A stretch of DNA of 30,110 bases from positions 1 through 30,110 of the IMG/VR virus record IMGVR_UViG_3300046171_000005, one strand, 5' to 3'. Below, in pieces: positions 635 to 30,110 of this stretch. Made by a program: the position numbers and the translations under genes. How positions within the stretch are numbered: position 1 is the stretch's first letter; each line of letters starts with the position of its first letter. This DNA is from a virus (taxonomy: Duplodnaviria; Caudoviricetes). The notes under the pieces are model-generated. The model did not search any database, was not told the DNA's origin, and worked only from the letters and a program-made list of their open reading frames with translations.

Positions 635-893
635 GGGATACTTGATAGAGTATAGCTGCATAAATACCGGGTTCAAGACTACGCTCTATCCAGAATCTAC
701 GCTCTCCGTAATGATGTAATTTGTGATGACACATAGGACATAAAGGTACAGTCCAGCAATCATCAGACTTCATAGACATTCCATTAGGTTTGATATGAGT
801 AAGATGGTGCGCGCAGATATCTATATCAGTCTTGCAATAACAACAAGGATACTGCCTAACATTCTTTAAATGTTTAGCGTCTCTTATTGCCAC
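615..893 (-). CDS. DUF968-like Zn-binding HNH-type nuclease
   Basis: HLKNVRQYPCCYC...AHH...DDCWTVPLCPMCHHKLH: two CxxC pairs with His pattern typical of this phage family. Confidence 0.7.
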   Translation of the reverse strand: MAIRDAKHLKNVRQYPCCYCKTDIDICAHHLTHIKPNGMSMKSDDCWTVPLCPMCHHKLHHYGERRFWIERSLEPGIYAAILYQVSLDKRNP

Positions 894-1365
894 GAATAGT
901 ATTACCTTTATCTTTTAATCCGTAGAATATTGATGCTTCATCAAGAGCTTCACGGAATCTAACACCGCCTCTGGCTTTAGATAGTTTAAATTTAGAGTTC
1001 ATTTGCTTAATAGTATTACCAAAACCACAAACATATTCAAGAAGTTCGTAAGGTTTCTGACCAATAACACTATGCAATCTATTAAGATCTTGGATAGCAT
1101 CTAGTTTATTATCAGCTATTGTAGGGTTAGCAGAATGATCTACTCGTACACCTATCTCTGGTTTAGAAATAAGTTGAGACATCTCCCACTTCCTTCTAAA
1201 GATAGAGCCAGCTGCATATTGAATGTGATCTATATGCCTACGATAATACATAGTCTCTATAGAAGATTCACGGATGTTTACAATATGTGCAGGTTTGTCC
1301 TTATTTGGTTGAGTGATTATGATTTCTCTATTATAATTAAAATGAGGTTCATCAAAGTTAGACAT
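874..1365 (-). CDS. DUF6456-like protein (possible antiterminator/transcription regulator)
   Basis: Start moved to ATG 1365 (MSNFDEP...) because the track start at 1554 lies inside the opposite-strand gene. NIRESSIETMYYRRHID..QYAAG..FRRKWE..LLEYVCGFG..FREALD pattern with helical C-terminus. Confidence 0.6.
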   Translation of the reverse strand: MSNFDEPHFNYNREIIITQPNKDKPAHIVNIRESSIETMYYRRHIDHIQYAAGSIFRRKWEMSQLISKPEIGVRVDHSANPTIADNKLDAIQDLNRLHSVIGQKPYELLEYVCGFGNTIKQMNSKFKLSKARGGVRFREALDEASIFYGLKDKGNTIRGNKRR

Positions 1366-1400: not shown

Positions 1401-2128
1401 TGAAAATAAATGAGTACAGACATAGTGCAAGTAAGGGTAATGATTGGTATGGTAATCCTTCACTATGGATATACAGAAACTTACTAGGTAAAAGATCTGA
1501 GACTACACCCCGTATGGCTATGGGTAACTCAGCAGAATTTGGTTGTGCTATCAATCTATTCTATAACAGATCAGATGCTGATGTAGTAGAACATTGCACT
1601 AAACACATGGTCAATCAGTTTGATGGTGAATGGTTTGACGAAACAGACAAAGTAGGTGGTATAGCTTTAAACTTGATTAAAGGTATCAAAGAAGCGTATC
1701 CTGATATTGGTATACCTCACCTATTTCAGAGCTACAAACGTCACAGATTGGACACCCTAGAGTATCCTATCACTACTGTAACAGACTTTGAATGGGAGAA
1801 CCTAATCATAGATACGAAAGCTACCCTAGCAGTACCATCACAGCCAAGAGAAGATCATGTAAGGCAACAGTCTTTGTACTCTATGTTGTTGGGTAAGCCA
1901 GTAACATTGGTGTATGCGTCACATAAAAAGTTCAAAGTGTTTGAATTAACTGACGAAATGATTAGCCAAAATTATGAGACTATGATAAATTCGTTTGAGT
2001 CTTTGGAGACATTTATGGCTAATGTACCTAACACAGAAACAGCTATCAAGATGATGCCTTTAAATACTGATGGGTACAAATGGAACCAGGAGGATCGTGA
2101 CAATGCGAAAACGCTTTGGAACAACTAA
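1400..2128 (+). CDS. PD-(D/E)XK nuclease (RecB/Cas4-like exonuclease)
   Basis: AAGGA RBS; MAMGNSAE, TDFEWENLIIDTKAT (D..D-x-K) and QQSLY motifs. Confidence 0.8.
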   Translation: MKINEYRHSASKGNDWYGNPSLWIYRNLLGKRSETTPRMAMGNSAEFGCAINLFYNRSDADVVEHCTKHMVNQFDGEWFDETDKVGGIALNLIKGIKEAYPDIGIPHLFQSYKRHRLDTLEYPITTVTDFEWENLIIDTKATLAVPSQPREDHVRQQSLYSMLLGKPVTLVYASHKKFKVFELTDEMISQNYETMINSFESLETFMANVPNTETAIKMMPLNTDGYKWNQEDRDNAKTLWNN

Positions 2129-2174
2129 TGGTGCTACAAAGATAGGATTAACTAACATAGCAAGGAGAATACAA

Positions 2175-2699
2175 ATGGAACTAAATAAATCAGTAGGTAA
2201 AGTAGATTATATATCTGCACCGAAACCAGGTAAGGATCAATGGTTCATGCCTGTTGTACTAAATCAAAGTGGAACTAAGATAAAGTTCTACTGTAAGTTT
2301 GATCCACAAGTATCAGTGGGTGATGAAGTCATGGTACATTATGGACAAGAACGAAATGGAAACGCTACTGCATTCAAAGTAGAAAGACCTGATAAAGATG
2401 TGAACGAAACAGAAACATCAAGCGGTGGAGCGAAAGCGACACCGAATACTTCTAAGGCTTTACCACAAGATATGATAGCAGTAGGATTGGCTGGTCGAAT
2501 AACTGAAGTGCTTATGACATTACATCATGAGAAAGGTATCCAACTAAAAGATCCATCAGGTGAAGTAGCTAAATGGATTTCAATAGGTCAAGAAGGATAC
2601 AACAAAGCAACTAATGTAGTAGATCAAATCAAAGATGCATTCCCTGGTACAACTGTAGAGAATGTTGATGATGATATTGATGACGAAGTACCATTCTAG
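2175..2699 (+). CDS. single-stranded DNA-binding protein-like
   Basis: ATG 2175 follows AAGGAG; beta-rich N-terminus and acidic tail DDDIDDEVPF typical of SSBs; next to the nuclease. Confidence 0.6.
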   Translation: MELNKSVGKVDYISAPKPGKDQWFMPVVLNQSGTKIKFYCKFDPQVSVGDEVMVHYGQERNGNATAFKVERPDKDVNETETSSGGAKATPNTSKALPQDMIAVGLAGRITEVLMTLHHEKGIQLKDPSGEVAKWISIGQEGYNKATNVVDQIKDAFPGTTVENVDDDIDDEVPF

Positions 2700-26491: not shown

Positions 26492-27018
26492 TAATTGTTT
26501 AAAGTTTCTGCATCCATTAATACTTCAGCTAATGTATTAGCTCTATTAGGTGTTTGTTTTGCAAACTTAGAATCTAATAATTCTTCTGCTGCTAATTTAT
26601 AATTTCTATCTTTTAATGCATCAAGCATTTTTTTAAAACCTAAAGTTCCTTTTTTTCCCATTTGAAAATTCATTTCAACTAAAACTCCAAATGCTTCAGG
26701 ACTAATTGAATCTTCATCTATTATAGACTTAGCATTATTTAATGCTTTATCAAAGTCTTTATCATACAAATCAAGTAATCCTTCTATATTAGTTGGAACT
26801 TTTTCACCTTTAATTACTTTGTGTCCAACTCCTACAGTTTCATTTCCAAGTGTATCTAAATAAACATTTTGTCTAAAACCTTCATGCTCTTTTATTCTAT
26901 CTTTAATTGAACTATATGGATCAGAATTATTTGTTATTGCTAGTAAACCTTCTGATCTAATCTCATCAACTGCTTGAGCTTTATTACTAGGTAGTAAAGC
27001 AAGTAATCCTTCAAGCAT
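26491..27018 (-). CDS. T4-type lysozyme (GH24 muramidase) with short N-terminal extension
   Basis: Start reassigned to 27018 (MLEGLL...); intact E-x8-D-x5-T triad in HEGFRQNVYLDTLGNETVGVGH; FQMG, QTPNRA motifs. Confidence 0.88.
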   Translation of the reverse strand: MLEGLLALLPSNKAQAVDEIRSEGLLAITNNSDPYSSIKDRIKEHEGFRQNVYLDTLGNETVGVGHKVIKGEKVPTNIEGLLDLYDKDFDKALNNAKSIIDEDSISPEAFGVLVEMNFQMGKKGTLGFKKMLDALKDRNYKLAAEELLDSKFAKQTPNRANTLAEVLMDAETLNN

Positions 27019-27019
27019 A

Positions 27020-27307
27020 TTATTTCTTTTTTCTCCAGCCAATAGTAACAGCAACAGGCTTATCATCATCACCTTGCAAAGTTTTAGTAACAGATGATAG
27101 TTTAGAATGTACATATGGTGCTGACTCCTTTGCAGCCCACATCTTCTTTTCAACAGAAACCTGTGGGTTATTCAATAGGTTTAACATATACTTTAATGGT
27201 GTTGTTTGACCTTTACCTAGTTTAGCATCTAGGCGTTCTTGCTTTGTTCCAATAGAAACACCGCTTGGTCTACCTGCACCTTTACGTTTTCCTCCGTGTC
27301 CAGCCAT
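27020..27307 (-). CDS. terS: terminase small subunit (probable)
   Basis: HGGKRKGAGRP N-terminus, TPL.YML, AAK..APYVH.KL; upstream of TerL. Confidence 0.65.
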   Translation of the reverse strand: MAGHGGKRKGAGRPSGVSIGTKQERLDAKLGKGQTTPLKYMLNLLNNPQVSVEKKMWAAKESAPYVHSKLSSVTKTLQGDDDKPVAVTIGWRKKK

Positions 27308-27606
27308 TATATTAACCCTGTTAAGTTTGCCAATAACATTTTTCTTAAATTCATTGGTGTAGATTTTACTTGTGGTTGACTCATTGCTTGCCCTGGCGTA
27401 CCCATTGTTTGTGGAGCAGGCATATTCATTGGCATTTGTGGTTTCATGTAAGGTGATAAATCTTTTGGGCCAACTCTTACGCCAAATATCTTTTCAATAT
27501 CAGCATTAGTTTTAACATCCATACCATCAAAGCGTGAACCTGGACTAACAACTTTATTGTTTTCTAGTGTAGCAACTTCATTGTCTACTGTTAAAAATTT
27601 CATCAT
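27307..27606 (-). CDS. hypothetical protein
   Basis: 99 aa, AAGGA RBS, Pro/Met/Gln-rich, TAATG coupling to TerS. Confidence 0.6.
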   Translation of the reverse strand: MMKFLTVDNEVATLENNKVVSPGSRFDGMDVKTNADIEKIFGVRVGPKDLSPYMKPQMPMNMPAPQTMGTPGQAMSQPQVKSTPMNLRKMLLANLTGLI

Positions 27607-27621
27607 ATGATTATCCTTTAA

Positions 27622-27888
27622 TTAGCAATTCCAAGCTCTAAGTGATTTGTTAATTCTAGAGTTCGGATCTCTTGCAGTCTTTGCAGAGGTTAATTTCTTT
27701 TTCATTCCCTTCATTCTAGCACAGAAGGATGCTCGTCTAGGGTTGCCTACCTTCTTACTAGGTGCTTTGAGGTTACGTTTCTTACCAGTCTTTGTTCTTC
27801 CCTTATTGTAAGATGCACGACCTTTGGCATTCAAACCCCCACTAGGGCTTTTACCTTCTTTACGTTGCCATGCTGGAGTCTTAGCCAT
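27622..27888 (-). CDS. basic protein, DUF6321-like
   Basis: Start probably 27888 (MAKTPAWQRKEGK); GGLN.KGRASY, RRASFCARM, DPNSRINKSLRAWNC motifs. Confidence 0.7.
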   Translation of the reverse strand: MAKTPAWQRKEGKSPSGGLNAKGRASYNKGRTKTGKKRNLKAPSKKVGNPRRASFCARMKGMKKKLTSAKTARDPNSRINKSLRAWNC

Positions 27889-28024
27889 GTTTCTTTTGTA
27901 CCTCAAATTTAGCTGTTAATGATGCTCCTTTGTGTGCCTTAAATTTACCTGAATGCTTCATCAACTTATAAGATGAACCTTTCTTCATCCAATGAAAACC
28001 AGCAGGAGCTTTAATTGATTTCAT
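27881..28024 (-). CDS. small basic protein (47 aa; not in ORF track)
   Basis: MKSIKAPAGFHWMKKGSSYKLMKHSGKFKAHKGASLTAKFEVQKKHG; alternative ATG at 28027. Confidence 0.7.
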   Translation of the reverse strand: MKSIKAPAGFHWMKKGSSYKLMKHSGKFKAHKGASLTAKFEVQKKHG

Positions 28025-28254
28025 CATTTCTGTTTTCTCTTTCTTCCTGATGCAGTAACAGACCAGCTTACTCTTTTCGGCCCAGTCTTTTTAGCTGCTT
28101 CTTTTTTAGTTATGCGACTTGCTACCTTTTTAGGTCTACAAGCAGGGTATGGTCGGTTCTTATCTTTCTTTCCGCTACGCCCACACTTCTTTCCTGTCTT
28201 AACATCACGCCAGTCCTCCTTGAACCACTTGCGCAAACCCCCCTTATACGCCAT
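28024..28254 (-). CDS. small basic protein
   Basis: GLRKWFKEDW.DVKTGK.CGRS..YP.CRP motif; TAATG coupling. Confidence 0.75.
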   Translation of the reverse strand: MAYKGGLRKWFKEDWRDVKTGKKCGRSGKKDKNRPYPACRPKKVASRITKKEAAKKTGPKRVSWSVTASGRKRKQK

Positions 28255-28394
28255 TAGTACTTGCCACCACGCTTCTTATACGTTTTGACAAGCCATGCGT
28301 TAGCATAAGCACTAGGATAGACCTTGAACTTGCGTTTAGCCTCTGATTTTACCCTAGAGTATAGGGCTTTATTCTTAGGTTTAGGTGATGCCAT
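28254..28394 (-). CDS. small basic protein, DUF5872-like (46 aa; not in ORF track)
   Basis: MASPKPKNKALYSRVKSEAKRKFKVYPSAYANAWLVKTYKKRGGKY. Confidence 0.75.
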   Translation of the reverse strand: MASPKPKNKALYSRVKSEAKRKFKVYPSAYANAWLVKTYKKRGGKY

Positions 28395-28395
28395 A

Positions 28396-28515
28396 TTAAA
28401 CTATGAACTTTTTATTAGTTTCCTGTACAATCATGCCAGGTTTCTTTTTCTTTTTAGCCTCCATGATCTTCTTTTTAAGAGAATCAGGTAGAGTCATTTG
28501 TTTCTTAGTAAGCAT
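28396..28515 (-). CDS. small basic protein (39 aa; not in ORF track)
   Basis: MLTKKQMTLPDSLKKKIMEAKKKKKPGMIVQETNKKFIV; TAATG coupling. Confidence 0.65.
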   Translation of the reverse strand: MLTKKQMTLPDSLKKKIMEAKKKKKPGMIVQETNKKFIV

Positions 28516-28613
28516 TAGTAAGACATACCCTTCTTTTTAGTTTTCTTCTTTTTTTTCTTCTTCATTGGTGGTCTACCTTTAGTAGAACCATACGTACCTT
28601 TACCCATTGGCAT
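28515..28613 (-). CDS. small Lys-rich peptide (32 aa; not in ORF track)
   Basis: MPMGKGTYGSTKGRPPMKKKKKKKTKKKGMSY; AAGGAG RBS. Confidence 0.7.
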   Translation of the reverse strand: MPMGKGTYGSTKGRPPMKKKKKKKTKKKGMSY

Positions 28614-28657
28614 AGTTATCTCTCCTTTAAAATAGTGTTTAAATTGATTTTAAGGTA

Positions 28658-29356
28658 TCAAACAGACGAATCTGAGTCGATCAGGTCTGTATCTACCATA
28701 TTAAGGTTCCCTGCTACTGTACGCCTCTCTCCGTCACCCTCAAAGGGGTAGACACAATGCTGTGTCCAGGATGGAAACATCAGTAGTTTACCAACTTCGG
28801 GCTTGATAGTCCGTGAGAATGGTGGTCTTAGCTCCTCCAAACCCCGTATGCCTGTCTGTCCGAAGTGAAATTGCAGGAATCCGTCTGCGATCCCACTAGA
28901 ATTGTAGAGATCTGACGACTTATAGGCATCTTTCTCTGCAATCTGGGGTGGTATCTTAGTCCATGTGGTGAATGATAAGCCCATAAGCGTATCAACCCCG
29001 TGGTCATGCAAGGGATTGTAGTCTCTTTCGTATGAATGAACAGACCATAGGCTGTGAACATGTGGAGTTCTTTTTAATTGGTCAACTCCGATAGTCCTGC
29101 AAAACTGTTTTATGTACTCCTGGGACATATACGCCACAATATTAACAAATGGGGTTATCAATGGATCCTTTGAATCGATCTTTAACTGTTCCCCGTGGGA
29201 TATTTGACCTACCAGTTTATTTCCAAAATCCTCTCCACCCTTCTTGTGTCGTGCATCGAGGTATTCGTTCAAACCCCCTATGACCTTTTCTGGTAGCTGT
29301 GTCTCTAAAAATAGAACTGCTGGAGCAACTGAGAACTTCATGGTTATCTCTGTCAT
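28658..29356 (-). CDS. putative 2OG-Fe(II) oxygenase
   Basis: YNPLHDH, MFPSWTQHCVYPF and RRTVAGN motifs of the double-stranded beta-helix oxygenases. Confidence 0.85.
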   Translation of the reverse strand: MTEITMKFSVAPAVLFLETQLPEKVIGGLNEYLDARHKKGGEDFGNKLVGQISHGEQLKIDSKDPLITPFVNIVAYMSQEYIKQFCRTIGVDQLKRTPHVHSLWSVHSYERDYNPLHDHGVDTLMGLSFTTWTKIPPQIAEKDAYKSSDLYNSSGIADGFLQFHFGQTGIRGLEELRPPFSRTIKPEVGKLLMFPSWTQHCVYPFEGDGERRTVAGNLNMVDTDLIDSDSSV

Positions 29357-29361
29357 ATCTC

Positions 29362-29390
29362 TTTGTATCGTTTCCTTGTGTGTGTGTCAA
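29362..29390 (-). promoter_or_regulatory. putative leaderless sigma70 promoter
   Basis: TTGACA-17-TACAAA-5 nt-ATG(29356). Confidence 0.45.
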
Positions 29391-29702
29391 TTACGGAATA
29401 CTGTTTACAAACCTCCGTATATATATTTACCTCTACCCTTATATTATTTCTTCCTATCCCGTTCTAAAACCCCCCTCTTTCCTTTTACCTCTGTACCTAT
29501 TAGGTACTGTATACTCGTCTTGAATTATCCCCTTGCCTACGTTCTCTCTTTGATTGTGTACCTTGTGTGGTTGGGTACGAACTACGCCTTTATTCCCTAC
29601 CTCAAGTACGCTGACTAATGTTGTATATTCTACTACGTAAGTACAAGACTAAGTGTAAGTATCAATATCAATCAATGAGTGTTTGTTGGGCAATTTTATT
29701 TC

Positions 29703-29938
29703 GTCAACGAGAAGTACTTCGAGTACTTCGTTGCCGACACATCAACAGAGAATAACTAAAGCTCGACCAAATATGGCCGAGCGAACAAGCGTATTGTGAA
29801 TATAACTGCTCGCCGCAGGGGCTATATCTTTTTCTGTTAAAGCGATACCAGTCTTGAAGTCAATGCACGCAGGCTGAAAAGTGGTCGCACCTAAAGGTGC
29901 AACAACTTTCCGCATATGACTACTGCGAGTGGATCGCT
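29703..29938 (-). ncRNA. putative structured RNA (ncRNA or 5' leader) of unknown class
   Basis: Several nested helices, G-U pairs that form only on the minus strand, and TATAAT 7 nt upstream of the first helix. Confidence 0.55.
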
Positions 29939-29945
29939 AGTAAAT

Positions 29946-29951
29946 ATTATA
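29946..29951 (-). promoter_or_regulatory. -10 box upstream of structured RNA
   Basis: TATAAT on minus strand; no good -35; the region is very AT-rich, so a chance match is possible. Confidence 0.35.
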
Positions 29952-30026
29952 AGATATATTTATTATAATAATAAAGAAGTAATGAATGTATTGAATTAAT
30001 AAATAAATAAAAATAGGAGTATAACT

Positions 30027-30110
30027 ATGAATAAAAATGTAAAAACAATCTATAATGTAATCACAGAATTCTGGAAAGAATTACATGATGAATGTATGAC
30101 AAGTAATCCA
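30027..30110 (+). CDS. hypothetical protein, truncated by window end (start of divergent region)
   Basis: TAGGAG RBS; MNKNVKTIYNVITEFWKELHDECMTSNP, open to the edge. Confidence 0.55.
   Translation, partial: MNKNVKTIYNVITEFWKELHDECMTSNP

Follow-up and report, generated by a model that had tools for sequence, protein, structure and literature searches.

In a group of marine podophages, the mosaic non-coding stretch between the early and the late genes is occupied, even in near-identical members, by one of several interchangeable hairpin cassettes. The cassette analysed here lies in IMG/VR record IMGVR_UViG_3300046171_000005 (positions 1-30,110; Duplodnaviria, Caudoviricetes), and "the window" denotes this whole stretch of 30,110 nt. 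The element forms a long imperfect hairpin with covarying pairs, carries an invariant -35-like hexamer in its paired 3' arm, and is closed over a conserved GATATAG by an outer helix. We propose, with a probability of about 0.4, that it folds as single-stranded DNA into a hairpin promoter, at which host RNA polymerase would prime phage DNA synthesis. When this reading is combined with that of an RNA-primed origin of the ColE1/MRB kind, the junction is, on balance, probably an origin region.

The window record is a marine phage, 83% complete. From 29356 its minus strand encodes the late genes (2OG-Fe(II) oxygenase, terminase, portal, scaffold, capsid, and tail), with the terminase about 3 kb from the junction. 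The folded element sits in a 670-nt divergent early/late junction. In its capsid protein the phage is 47% identical to pelagiphage HTVC106P and 43% identical to proteins of Bruynoghevirus. Related loci carry L numbers; 66 loci were fetched via the 2OG protein, and three relatives (G001, G002, and G003) are 100% complete according to CheckV. The features of the window are as follows.

2070-2699, plus strand: SSB-like early gene, with an N-terminal OB fold and an acidic DEVPF tail in the predicted structure.
28658-29356, minus strand: first late-strand gene, 2OG-Fe(II) oxygenase (phrog_81).
29362-29390, minus strand: TTGACA-17-TACAAA, a sigma70-like promoter placed immediately in front of the first late gene.
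29466-29477, minus strand: G-tract followed by a T-tract in a purine-rich stretch, shared by 30 of 32 related loci and confined to the late-sense strand.
29516-29526, minus strand: AATTCAAGACG motif, conserved in relatives; in L378 a DnaA-box hairpin comes next.
29666-29677, minus strand: CATTGATTGATA motif, conserved in relatives, just past the right boundary of the swapped cassette.
29703-29738, minus strand: third hairpin, by pairing; 29694-29753 (60 nt) are unchanged in one metatranscriptome contig.
29744-29838, minus strand: AACAGA/UCUGUU helix, seen in no relative of the window; it and the outer helix are alternatives.
29761-29782, minus strand: 9-bp hairpin, terminator-like by pattern, with no homolog found.
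29806-29818, minus strand: GGCGA-loop hairpin, whose stem varies with pairing kept in L005, L011, L012, L054, and L187.
29822-29828, minus strand: conserved GATATAG, which forms the 3' arm of the outer helix and is predicted to hold the +1 region of the promoter.
29836-29841, minus strand: position of the -10 hexamer after a 16-nt spacer; TAnnnT in L002, L009, L187, L191, and L199, and a degenerate TTTAAC in the window.
29841-29938, minus strand: domain 1, a long imperfect hairpin in which four pairs are compensatory; at least three unrelated types of cassette occur at this position, and it is one of them.
29858-29863, minus strand: TTGACT, the -35-like hexamer in the paired 3' arm, invariant in the domain 1 rows.
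29940-30028, no strand assigned: flank of 88% A+T separating the hairpin from the first early gene, kept in close relatives.
29953-29958, minus strand: TATATC, 5' arm of the outer helix (RNAalifold); were the element a single-strand promoter, the first bases of the RNA are predicted to be copied from here.
30029-30110, plus strand: start of the divergent first early gene (169 aa in L008).

The original prediction had described a multi-domain, possibly pseudoknotted RNA, and each of its helices was found to pair on the minus strand. The closing helix of domain 1 (29938-29930/29850-29841) forms 6+3 bp, the inner AGUCA and AUGC helices (29921-29912/29866-29858) are paired, and the 16-position stem (29911-29896/29891-29876) holds 15 pairs, with two G-U and a single U.C mismatch at 29904/29883; the 9-bp hairpin (29782-29761) and the third hairpin (29738-29703) pair as well. 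As minus-strand RNA, the 236 nt of the element fold at -85.6 kcal/mol (z -4.98), with 0 of 200 shuffles as good, and the same 236 nt of the plus strand fold at -72.8 kcal/mol (z -3.0); the G-U pairs in the window likewise favour the minus strand. With DNA parameters, 29700-29965 yields z scores of -5.5 (minus) and -4.5 (plus), and a stable long stem-loop is hence present in the single-stranded DNA form, as the covariation of domain 1 also indicates. Since DNA and RNA z scores are both strong, energy cannot tell RNA from DNA. In a coarse and noisy genome-wide fold scan (100-nt segments, 10 shuffles each), 29711-29810 of the minus strand ranked second of 602, and coding segments scored alike.

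Covariation among homologs, which the original prediction had put forward as a check, is seen in domain 1. In an alignment of the window with L002, L009, L187, L191, and L199, in which L002 and L009 are near-identical, 4 of the 40 pairs are changed on both sides across the six rows, and 98.7% of cells are paired vs. 31-39% in slid controls. Rfam returned no match at gathering over the window and none at E<=5 over 27800-30110, and the description of a selected structure of no known class thus holds on both counts. The proposed pseudoknot (29927-29923/29872-29868) stands only in part: CGCAG and CUGCG are complementary in the window, but the pairing is not conserved and displays no two-sided change. 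The CUGCG partner is deleted in two of the six rows (L191 and L199), where the sole bases complementary to CGCAG are already taken by the main helix. With the pseudoknot not conserved, the main hint of a ribozyme or riboswitch is therefore removed.

The same applies to the AACAGA/UCUGUU helix (29838-29833/29749-29744) said to close domain 2, which pairs in the window but is not conserved, L187 and L191 lacking it even though GATATAG and the GGCGA hairpin are retained. A further helix, absent from the original prediction, was identified by RNAalifold in five of the six rows between TATATC (29958-29953) and GATATA (29828-29823). The fold with AACAGA/UCUGUU and the fold with this outer helix have energies of -89.4 vs. 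-85.5 kcal/mol as RNA and -46.8 vs. -46.6 kcal/mol as DNA, so that the outer helix costs 0.2 kcal/mol with DNA parameters vs. 3.9 as RNA. In L011, L012, and L025 it closes first domains that are unrelated to domain 1. The helix is short, made of low-complexity A+T and nearly invariant within domain 1, and it is therefore supported by recurrence, not by covariation. The TATAAT that had been placed 7 nt before the first paired base is indeed found at 29951-29946, but it is not conserved in homologs and falls inside the outer helix; a second TATAAT (29967-29962) occurs in the same 88% A+T stretch, and a TATAAT there is therefore weak evidence. An RNA starting near 29938, as had been envisaged, finds no support, given that the conserved fold begins upstream of TATAAT, that the promoter-like signals are in the 3' arm, and that the loops look DNA-like. 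As the outer helix encloses TATAAT, a transcript from 29938 would not contain the conserved fold.

The exchange of cassettes is most evident in one contig that aligns with the window at 95.5% identity across 26939-29701 and at 96.9% across 29953-30110. The interval has no match, an unrelated 455-nt structured insert replacing the 251 nt of the window. Terminases are 98-100% identical where the cassettes are unrelated. Exchange extends to parts of the element, with domain 1 kept and domain 2 changed in L002, L009, L187, and L199, and with domain 1 and the GGCGA hairpin kept before divergence sets in for L054/L191 and L187; an all-against-all comparison of relatives reveals several shuffled modules. 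L378 lacks both the element and any large GATATAG-closed hairpin, and the AT-rich relatives lack that hairpin too. In a metatranscriptome contig (268 nt, depth 2), the third hairpin of the window is joined, unchanged, to a junction like that of L143, a more distant phage whose late genes are present in the same run. This RNA-library contig shows cassette exchange and is, as evidence of transcription, weak. The RNA-run data consist entirely of contigs, from which strand, ends, and level are not readable, and X2-X5 do not cover the junction; among the seven RNA runs listed, one held any element words, with a share of 0.07. Such fast swapping of unrelated cassettes suggests selection by the host or by rival phages on a non-coding element.

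Pattern scans for the element returned real matches in 4 of 10 cases in the first scan, all of them known contigs, again in known contigs only in the second, in 5 of 21 in the third (L187, L189, L191, L196, and L199), and in 3 of 119 among the matches listed in the fourth, all known contigs; a covariance model of domain 1 run over 34 sources matched only the window. Two other structured modules are found in relatives and not in the window. One is a multi-way junction with tandem GA/GA pairs and covarying stems (L012:950-1175, L005, L011, and L025), and the other a three-hairpin module with a conserved CCGACT linker and fully covarying stems (L002, L003, L011, L012, L019, L028, L035, and L054).

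Promoter-like boxes occupy one arm of the hairpin. The -35 TTGACT is invariant and paired, and a TAnnnT hexamer follows 16 nt past it in five of the six domain 1 rows. Across three unrelated cassette types, TAnnnT lies 7-8 nt upstream of the GATATAG anchor in seven of nine cassettes, unrelated ones carrying a perfect TATAAT (L011) or TAATCT (L012); the window and L025 fail this test, and one promoter scan scored none for the window. When the sequences were read by eye, the TAnnnT-type hexamer was absent from the opposite arm. The signals of the 3' arm point to a start near 29828, and the late promoters of several relatives also combine TTGACT with a 16-17-nt spacer. Back-to-back divergent promoters were considered and rejected, the 5' arm having no -10 before GATATA on the plus strand (sequences read by eye).

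The loops of the junction hairpins look DNA-type, as judged from their sequence classes. GNA triloops cap 7 of 70 distinct strong hairpins (15 junctions) vs. 0 of 55 terminator-like hairpins of the same phages, and GNRA and UNCG loops taken together cap 0 of 70 vs. 4 of 55 (Fisher p 0.018 and 0.035, respectively, in a test devised after seeing the sequences, which are related). With 4-bp stems allowed, C(GNA)G, a loop stable in DNA, is counted 6 times on the late-sense strand, where shuffled sequence gives 0.8, and 4 times on the opposite strand, where it gives 0.6; GNRA occurs 4 times vs. 1.6 and c(UNCG)g 0 times. The window's own loops are TTTA, GGCGA, TATT, and CGA, none of them C(GNA)G. 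In the junction helices G.T and A.C mismatches stand at 12:12, and a strand-specific fold is therefore not shown for the region as a whole. At four-fold sites, skew runs from -0.22 to -0.27 on the late-sense strand, which is the C-richer one, and from -0.02 to -0.15 on the early-sense strand (few counted sites), opposite to what long minus-strand exposure would give. Covarying phage hairpins labelled "structured RNA" may in such cases be selected as DNA.

No polymerase, primase, helicase, Rep, or integrase was found by Pfam among 28 early or small ORFs of G001, nor by PHROGs among 47 ORFs of G001-G003; what the two scans did return was an exonuclease, HNH/DUF968, a weak DUF6456, methylases, and unknowns. 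Neither was a nicking enzyme found. Many of the small early ORFs belong to no family, and one of them could be an initiator. The same lack of replication enzymes is described for HTVC106P, the MCP relative (bioRxiv 10.1101/2019.12.14.876532). The 209-aa product of 2070-2699 has a predicted OB domain (pLDDT 66) with best structural matches to CST, cold-shock domains, and RecO, and is consistent with an SSB. A single-stranded stage in this tailed phage is putative, with no relaxase or Rep match and an SSB-like gene present. A search for the terminase in GTDB genomes found no prophage.

Downstream of the element, a promoter of the form TTGAC(N)-16/18-(T/C)AnnnW directly precedes the first late gene at 27 of 36 loci, that of the window lying 330 nt away. 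G-tracts followed by T's reach 4.8 per kb in the final 300 nt ahead of that gene vs. 0.22 elsewhere, and lie in a stretch of 72% purine. The junction of L378 holds two perfect DnaA boxes, one of them in a 13-bp stem; among 32 junctions, L378 is the only one with DnaA boxes, and none is present in the window. An AT-rich subclade carries dif-like sites in the junction, with conserved XerC/XerD-type arms and variable 6-nt spacers. Judged by sequence, these sites would fit dimer resolution of a circular replicon and leave the host unfixed.

In the hairpin-promoter model, the phage would replicate as a circle with host enzymes, and the late-sense (minus) strand would be exposed, coated with SSB, at initiation or during strand displacement. 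Domain 1 and the outer helix would then offer the -35 and the spacer as duplex, leave the -10 loosely paired, and add a short duplex downstream of it. RNA polymerase would copy the 5' arm into a plus-sense RNA starting GAUAUA, which might serve as a primer or provide a leader for the first early gene. In the double-stranded form, the same promoter would fire leftwards from 29828 through domain 2 to the G-tracts, and an R-loop formed there could open the origin. Cassettes without any relationship could replace one another because each would be a different way of signalling host proteins to prime. The hairpin promoter draws on the missing replication enzymes and the SSB-like gene, the invariant paired TTGACT, TAnnnT in seven of nine cassettes, the outer helix on unrelated cassettes, the GNA loops, the DnaA hairpin of L378, the dif-like sites, and the G-tracts of 30 of 32 loci. 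Against it stand the degenerate -10 of the window, its loops other than C(GNA)G, the 12:12 mismatches, the opposite skew, DnaA boxes in 1 of 32 junctions, the absence of a GATATAG-closed hairpin from L378 and the AT-rich relatives, and the RNA-library contig, which spans hairpin 3 and the junction downstream of it. A wider version, unlikely in its entirety, would posit, in an abundant group of marine tailed phages lacking their own replication enzymes, a mosaic origin whose interchangeable modules (hairpin promoter for RNA polymerase, DnaA-box hairpin, and GNA-loop hairpins) enlist host priming. Its promoter would work both ways: as double-stranded DNA it would act leftwards and yield an R-loop primer, and after displacement and folding of its strand it would act rightwards.

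Comparable elements are known from plasmids. The Frpo/ssi promoters of F, ColIb-P9, and pESBL (classes 1-3) and polymerase-primed sso are portrayed as large imperfect stem-loops with -35 and -10 on one arm, used by host sigma70 polymerase only (PMC9849209, PMC12672017, PMC4595007, bioRxiv 10.1101/2023.02.15.528439). The layout predicted for the phage element, with -35 and spacer as duplex, a loose -10, a short duplex over +1, and the boxes on one arm only, corresponds to that of Frpo-type promoters (PMC9849209, PMC12672017, bioRxiv 10.1101/2023.02.15.528439) and of polymerase-primed single-strand origins (PMC4595007), for which emphasis is placed on both boxes lying in the stem. The phage element shares with them its intergenic location, the large imperfect stem-loop, a paired -35 on one arm, with a TAnnnT -10 in seven of nine cassettes, the putative use of host sigma70 polymerase alone, and an SSB-like gene in the same genome. 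It differs from them in belonging to a tailed phage in which no relaxase, oriT, or rolling-circle Rep was found, in having no plasmid sequence similarity and a degenerate -10 in the window, in the swapping of unrelated cassettes at one site, and in a promoter that would also be usable double-stranded. The A-site of the ABC-primosome, as described in PMC6127211, is a DnaA box in a hairpin stem; L378, with its DnaA box in a 13-bp stem, resembles it, unlike the window and 30 other junctions, which have no DnaA box.

Beyond Rfam, where seven relatives gave ten sub-threshold matches, none over a cassette, a tRNA scan detected nothing, blastn against annotated phages gave short chance matches only, and blastn against 72,556 plasmids gave six short chance matches (best E 0.07). 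Short motifs and two contig numbers are absent from three of the six supplements listed for the Fremin 2023 viral RNA catalogue (PMC10690425), and the element may be among its remaining candidates. In the literature covered, which includes few subscription papers, we found no report of a single-strand promoter or ssi in a tailed phage, and none of such an element in this phage group. The element is not a member of any tested family, and its sequence features suggest that it would work like a known kind, the single-strand promoter or initiation site, in a setting unreported in that literature. If correct, the hairpin promoter would extend single-strand promoters, reported for plasmids and integrative elements, to tailed phages, and would supply a candidate origin for small podophages without polymerase, primase, helicase, or initiator (HTVC106P-like phages, which are globally abundant).

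The same observations can be arranged around an RNA. In an origin of the ColE1/MRB kind, which we consider rather unlikely here, a promoter, either that of the 3' arm or one further upstream, would drive a structured 250-500-nt RNA that hybridises at the G-tracts and primes the leading strand; the folds would be selected in RNA, and the mosaic 5' parts would change the specificity of replication control. ColE1/MRB origins belong to replicons without Rep, with an ORF-free structured region of about 500-900 nt and a long origin RNA used in this way (PMC6380287, PMC3035462), and the phages match them in having no Rep-like gene in three near-complete relatives, an ORF-free structured region, and a candidate long RNA from an origin promoter whose signals point to a start at GATATAG. 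The covarying multi-helix modules downstream of GATATAG, the strand-specific G-tracts in their 72% purine stretch, and the RNA-library contig over the downstream part agree with this origin type. It leaves unexplained domain 1 and the outer helix, which lie upstream of the predicted start and fold the hairpin back over the promoter, and RNA-type tetraloops are few. No antisense RNA I unit was detected, the plus strand over 29700-29960 showing neither antisense promoter nor terminator in a consensus scan, which is a weak test, and L012 showing terminator-like hairpins and no promoter on that strand; nor is there similarity to plasmid origins (the six short chance matches) or to Rfam. A stand-alone non-coding RNA, swapped like a moron and acting as a decoy, an anti-defence RNA, or a 6S-like promoter mimic that binds RNA polymerase, is a shade less credible. 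Rapid swapping between near-identical phages, the G-U pairs favouring the minus strand in the window, the terminator-like hairpin 29782-29761, and the RNA-library contig would suit it, and a closing stem, a bubble, and a long interrupted stem give the element the look of a promoter mimic; no conserved terminator or promoter bounds it, however, neither 6S nor any other Rfam family scores at E<=5, the loops are of DNA type, and element words occur in just one of the seven RNA runs listed (share 0.07).

The position of the junction admits two further readings. Were it the physical end of the genome, its promoter, hairpins, and G-tracts could serve terminase loading or repeat duplication, a possibility that we regard as improbable. 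Its placement between the start of the late block, with the terminase about 3 kb off, and the early genes is compatible with a terminal-repeat or packaging signal, as are the short motifs conserved across cassettes and the relationship of the MCP to that of Bruynoghevirus, whose genome ends reportedly lie at the corresponding early/late junction. Several contigs stop 230-310 nt short of the 2OG gene, but these ends coincide with a mosaic boundary near 29588 that is enough alone to break assemblies, all six records checked are of the linear class and without end repeats, and terminases 98-100% identical accompany unrelated cassettes. The remaining idea, which the original prediction had raised, is a cis antiterminator or other leader (put-like, riboswitch, or ribozyme) controlling the late block. 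The HK022 put antiterminator RNA is a structured sequence upstream of a long phage operon, and antiterminators of this type lie in the leader of the transcript that they control and are conserved among close relatives. The element is on the strand of the late genes, upstream of them, with a strong fold, a GGCGA pentaloop hairpin that we take to resemble a boxB-type stem, and a weak DUF6456 gene elsewhere in the genome. Unlike put, it is much larger, is swapped or absent (as in L378) even among close relatives, and is separated by a promoter from the late genes; it has no Rfam match, and its pseudoknot is not conserved. Because a separate promoter for the late block lies 330 nt downstream of the element, as one does before the first late gene at 27 of 36 loci, put-like antitermination is unlikely, and we hold control of the late block by such a leader to be very improbable.

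Several further observations concern the genome and its junction. The cumulative GC skew minimum falls within the junction in four of four genomes (29636 in the window, 23835 in G001, 6329 in G002, and 2160 in G003), but this is also where the coding strand switches. A cluster of very small lysine-rich ORFs, most of which are missed by a 60-aa ORF list, occupies 27622-28612 of the minus strand, in the interval that separates the 2OG gene from the terminase region. Within the early region, the late strand carries DUF6456-like and DUF968/HNH-like genes, at 874-1365 (minus strand) and next to it upstream, which are a possible candidate for a late-transcription regulator; PDB sequence searches gave nothing significant. 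In L378 (contig of L135), positions 916, 958, and 1399 correspond to two perfect DnaA boxes and one complementary near-match. The dif-like subclade comprises L032, L036, L039, L041, L042, L044, L175, L023/L024, L027, and L172, and its arm pattern recurs in 43 GTDB stretches, 15 of them from SAR86, every SAR86 spacer being TATATA; a dif-like site in the window was rejected, its best match having 6 mismatches in 18. GTTC-N7-GTTC/GAAC-N7-GAAC repeats, none of them in the window's junction, occur in L020, L032, L034, and 11 other junctions, in up to four units with an 11-nt period (23 in 27.5 kb of junction vs. 40 in 213 kb elsewhere), and may be alphaproteobacterial LexA boxes or iterons.
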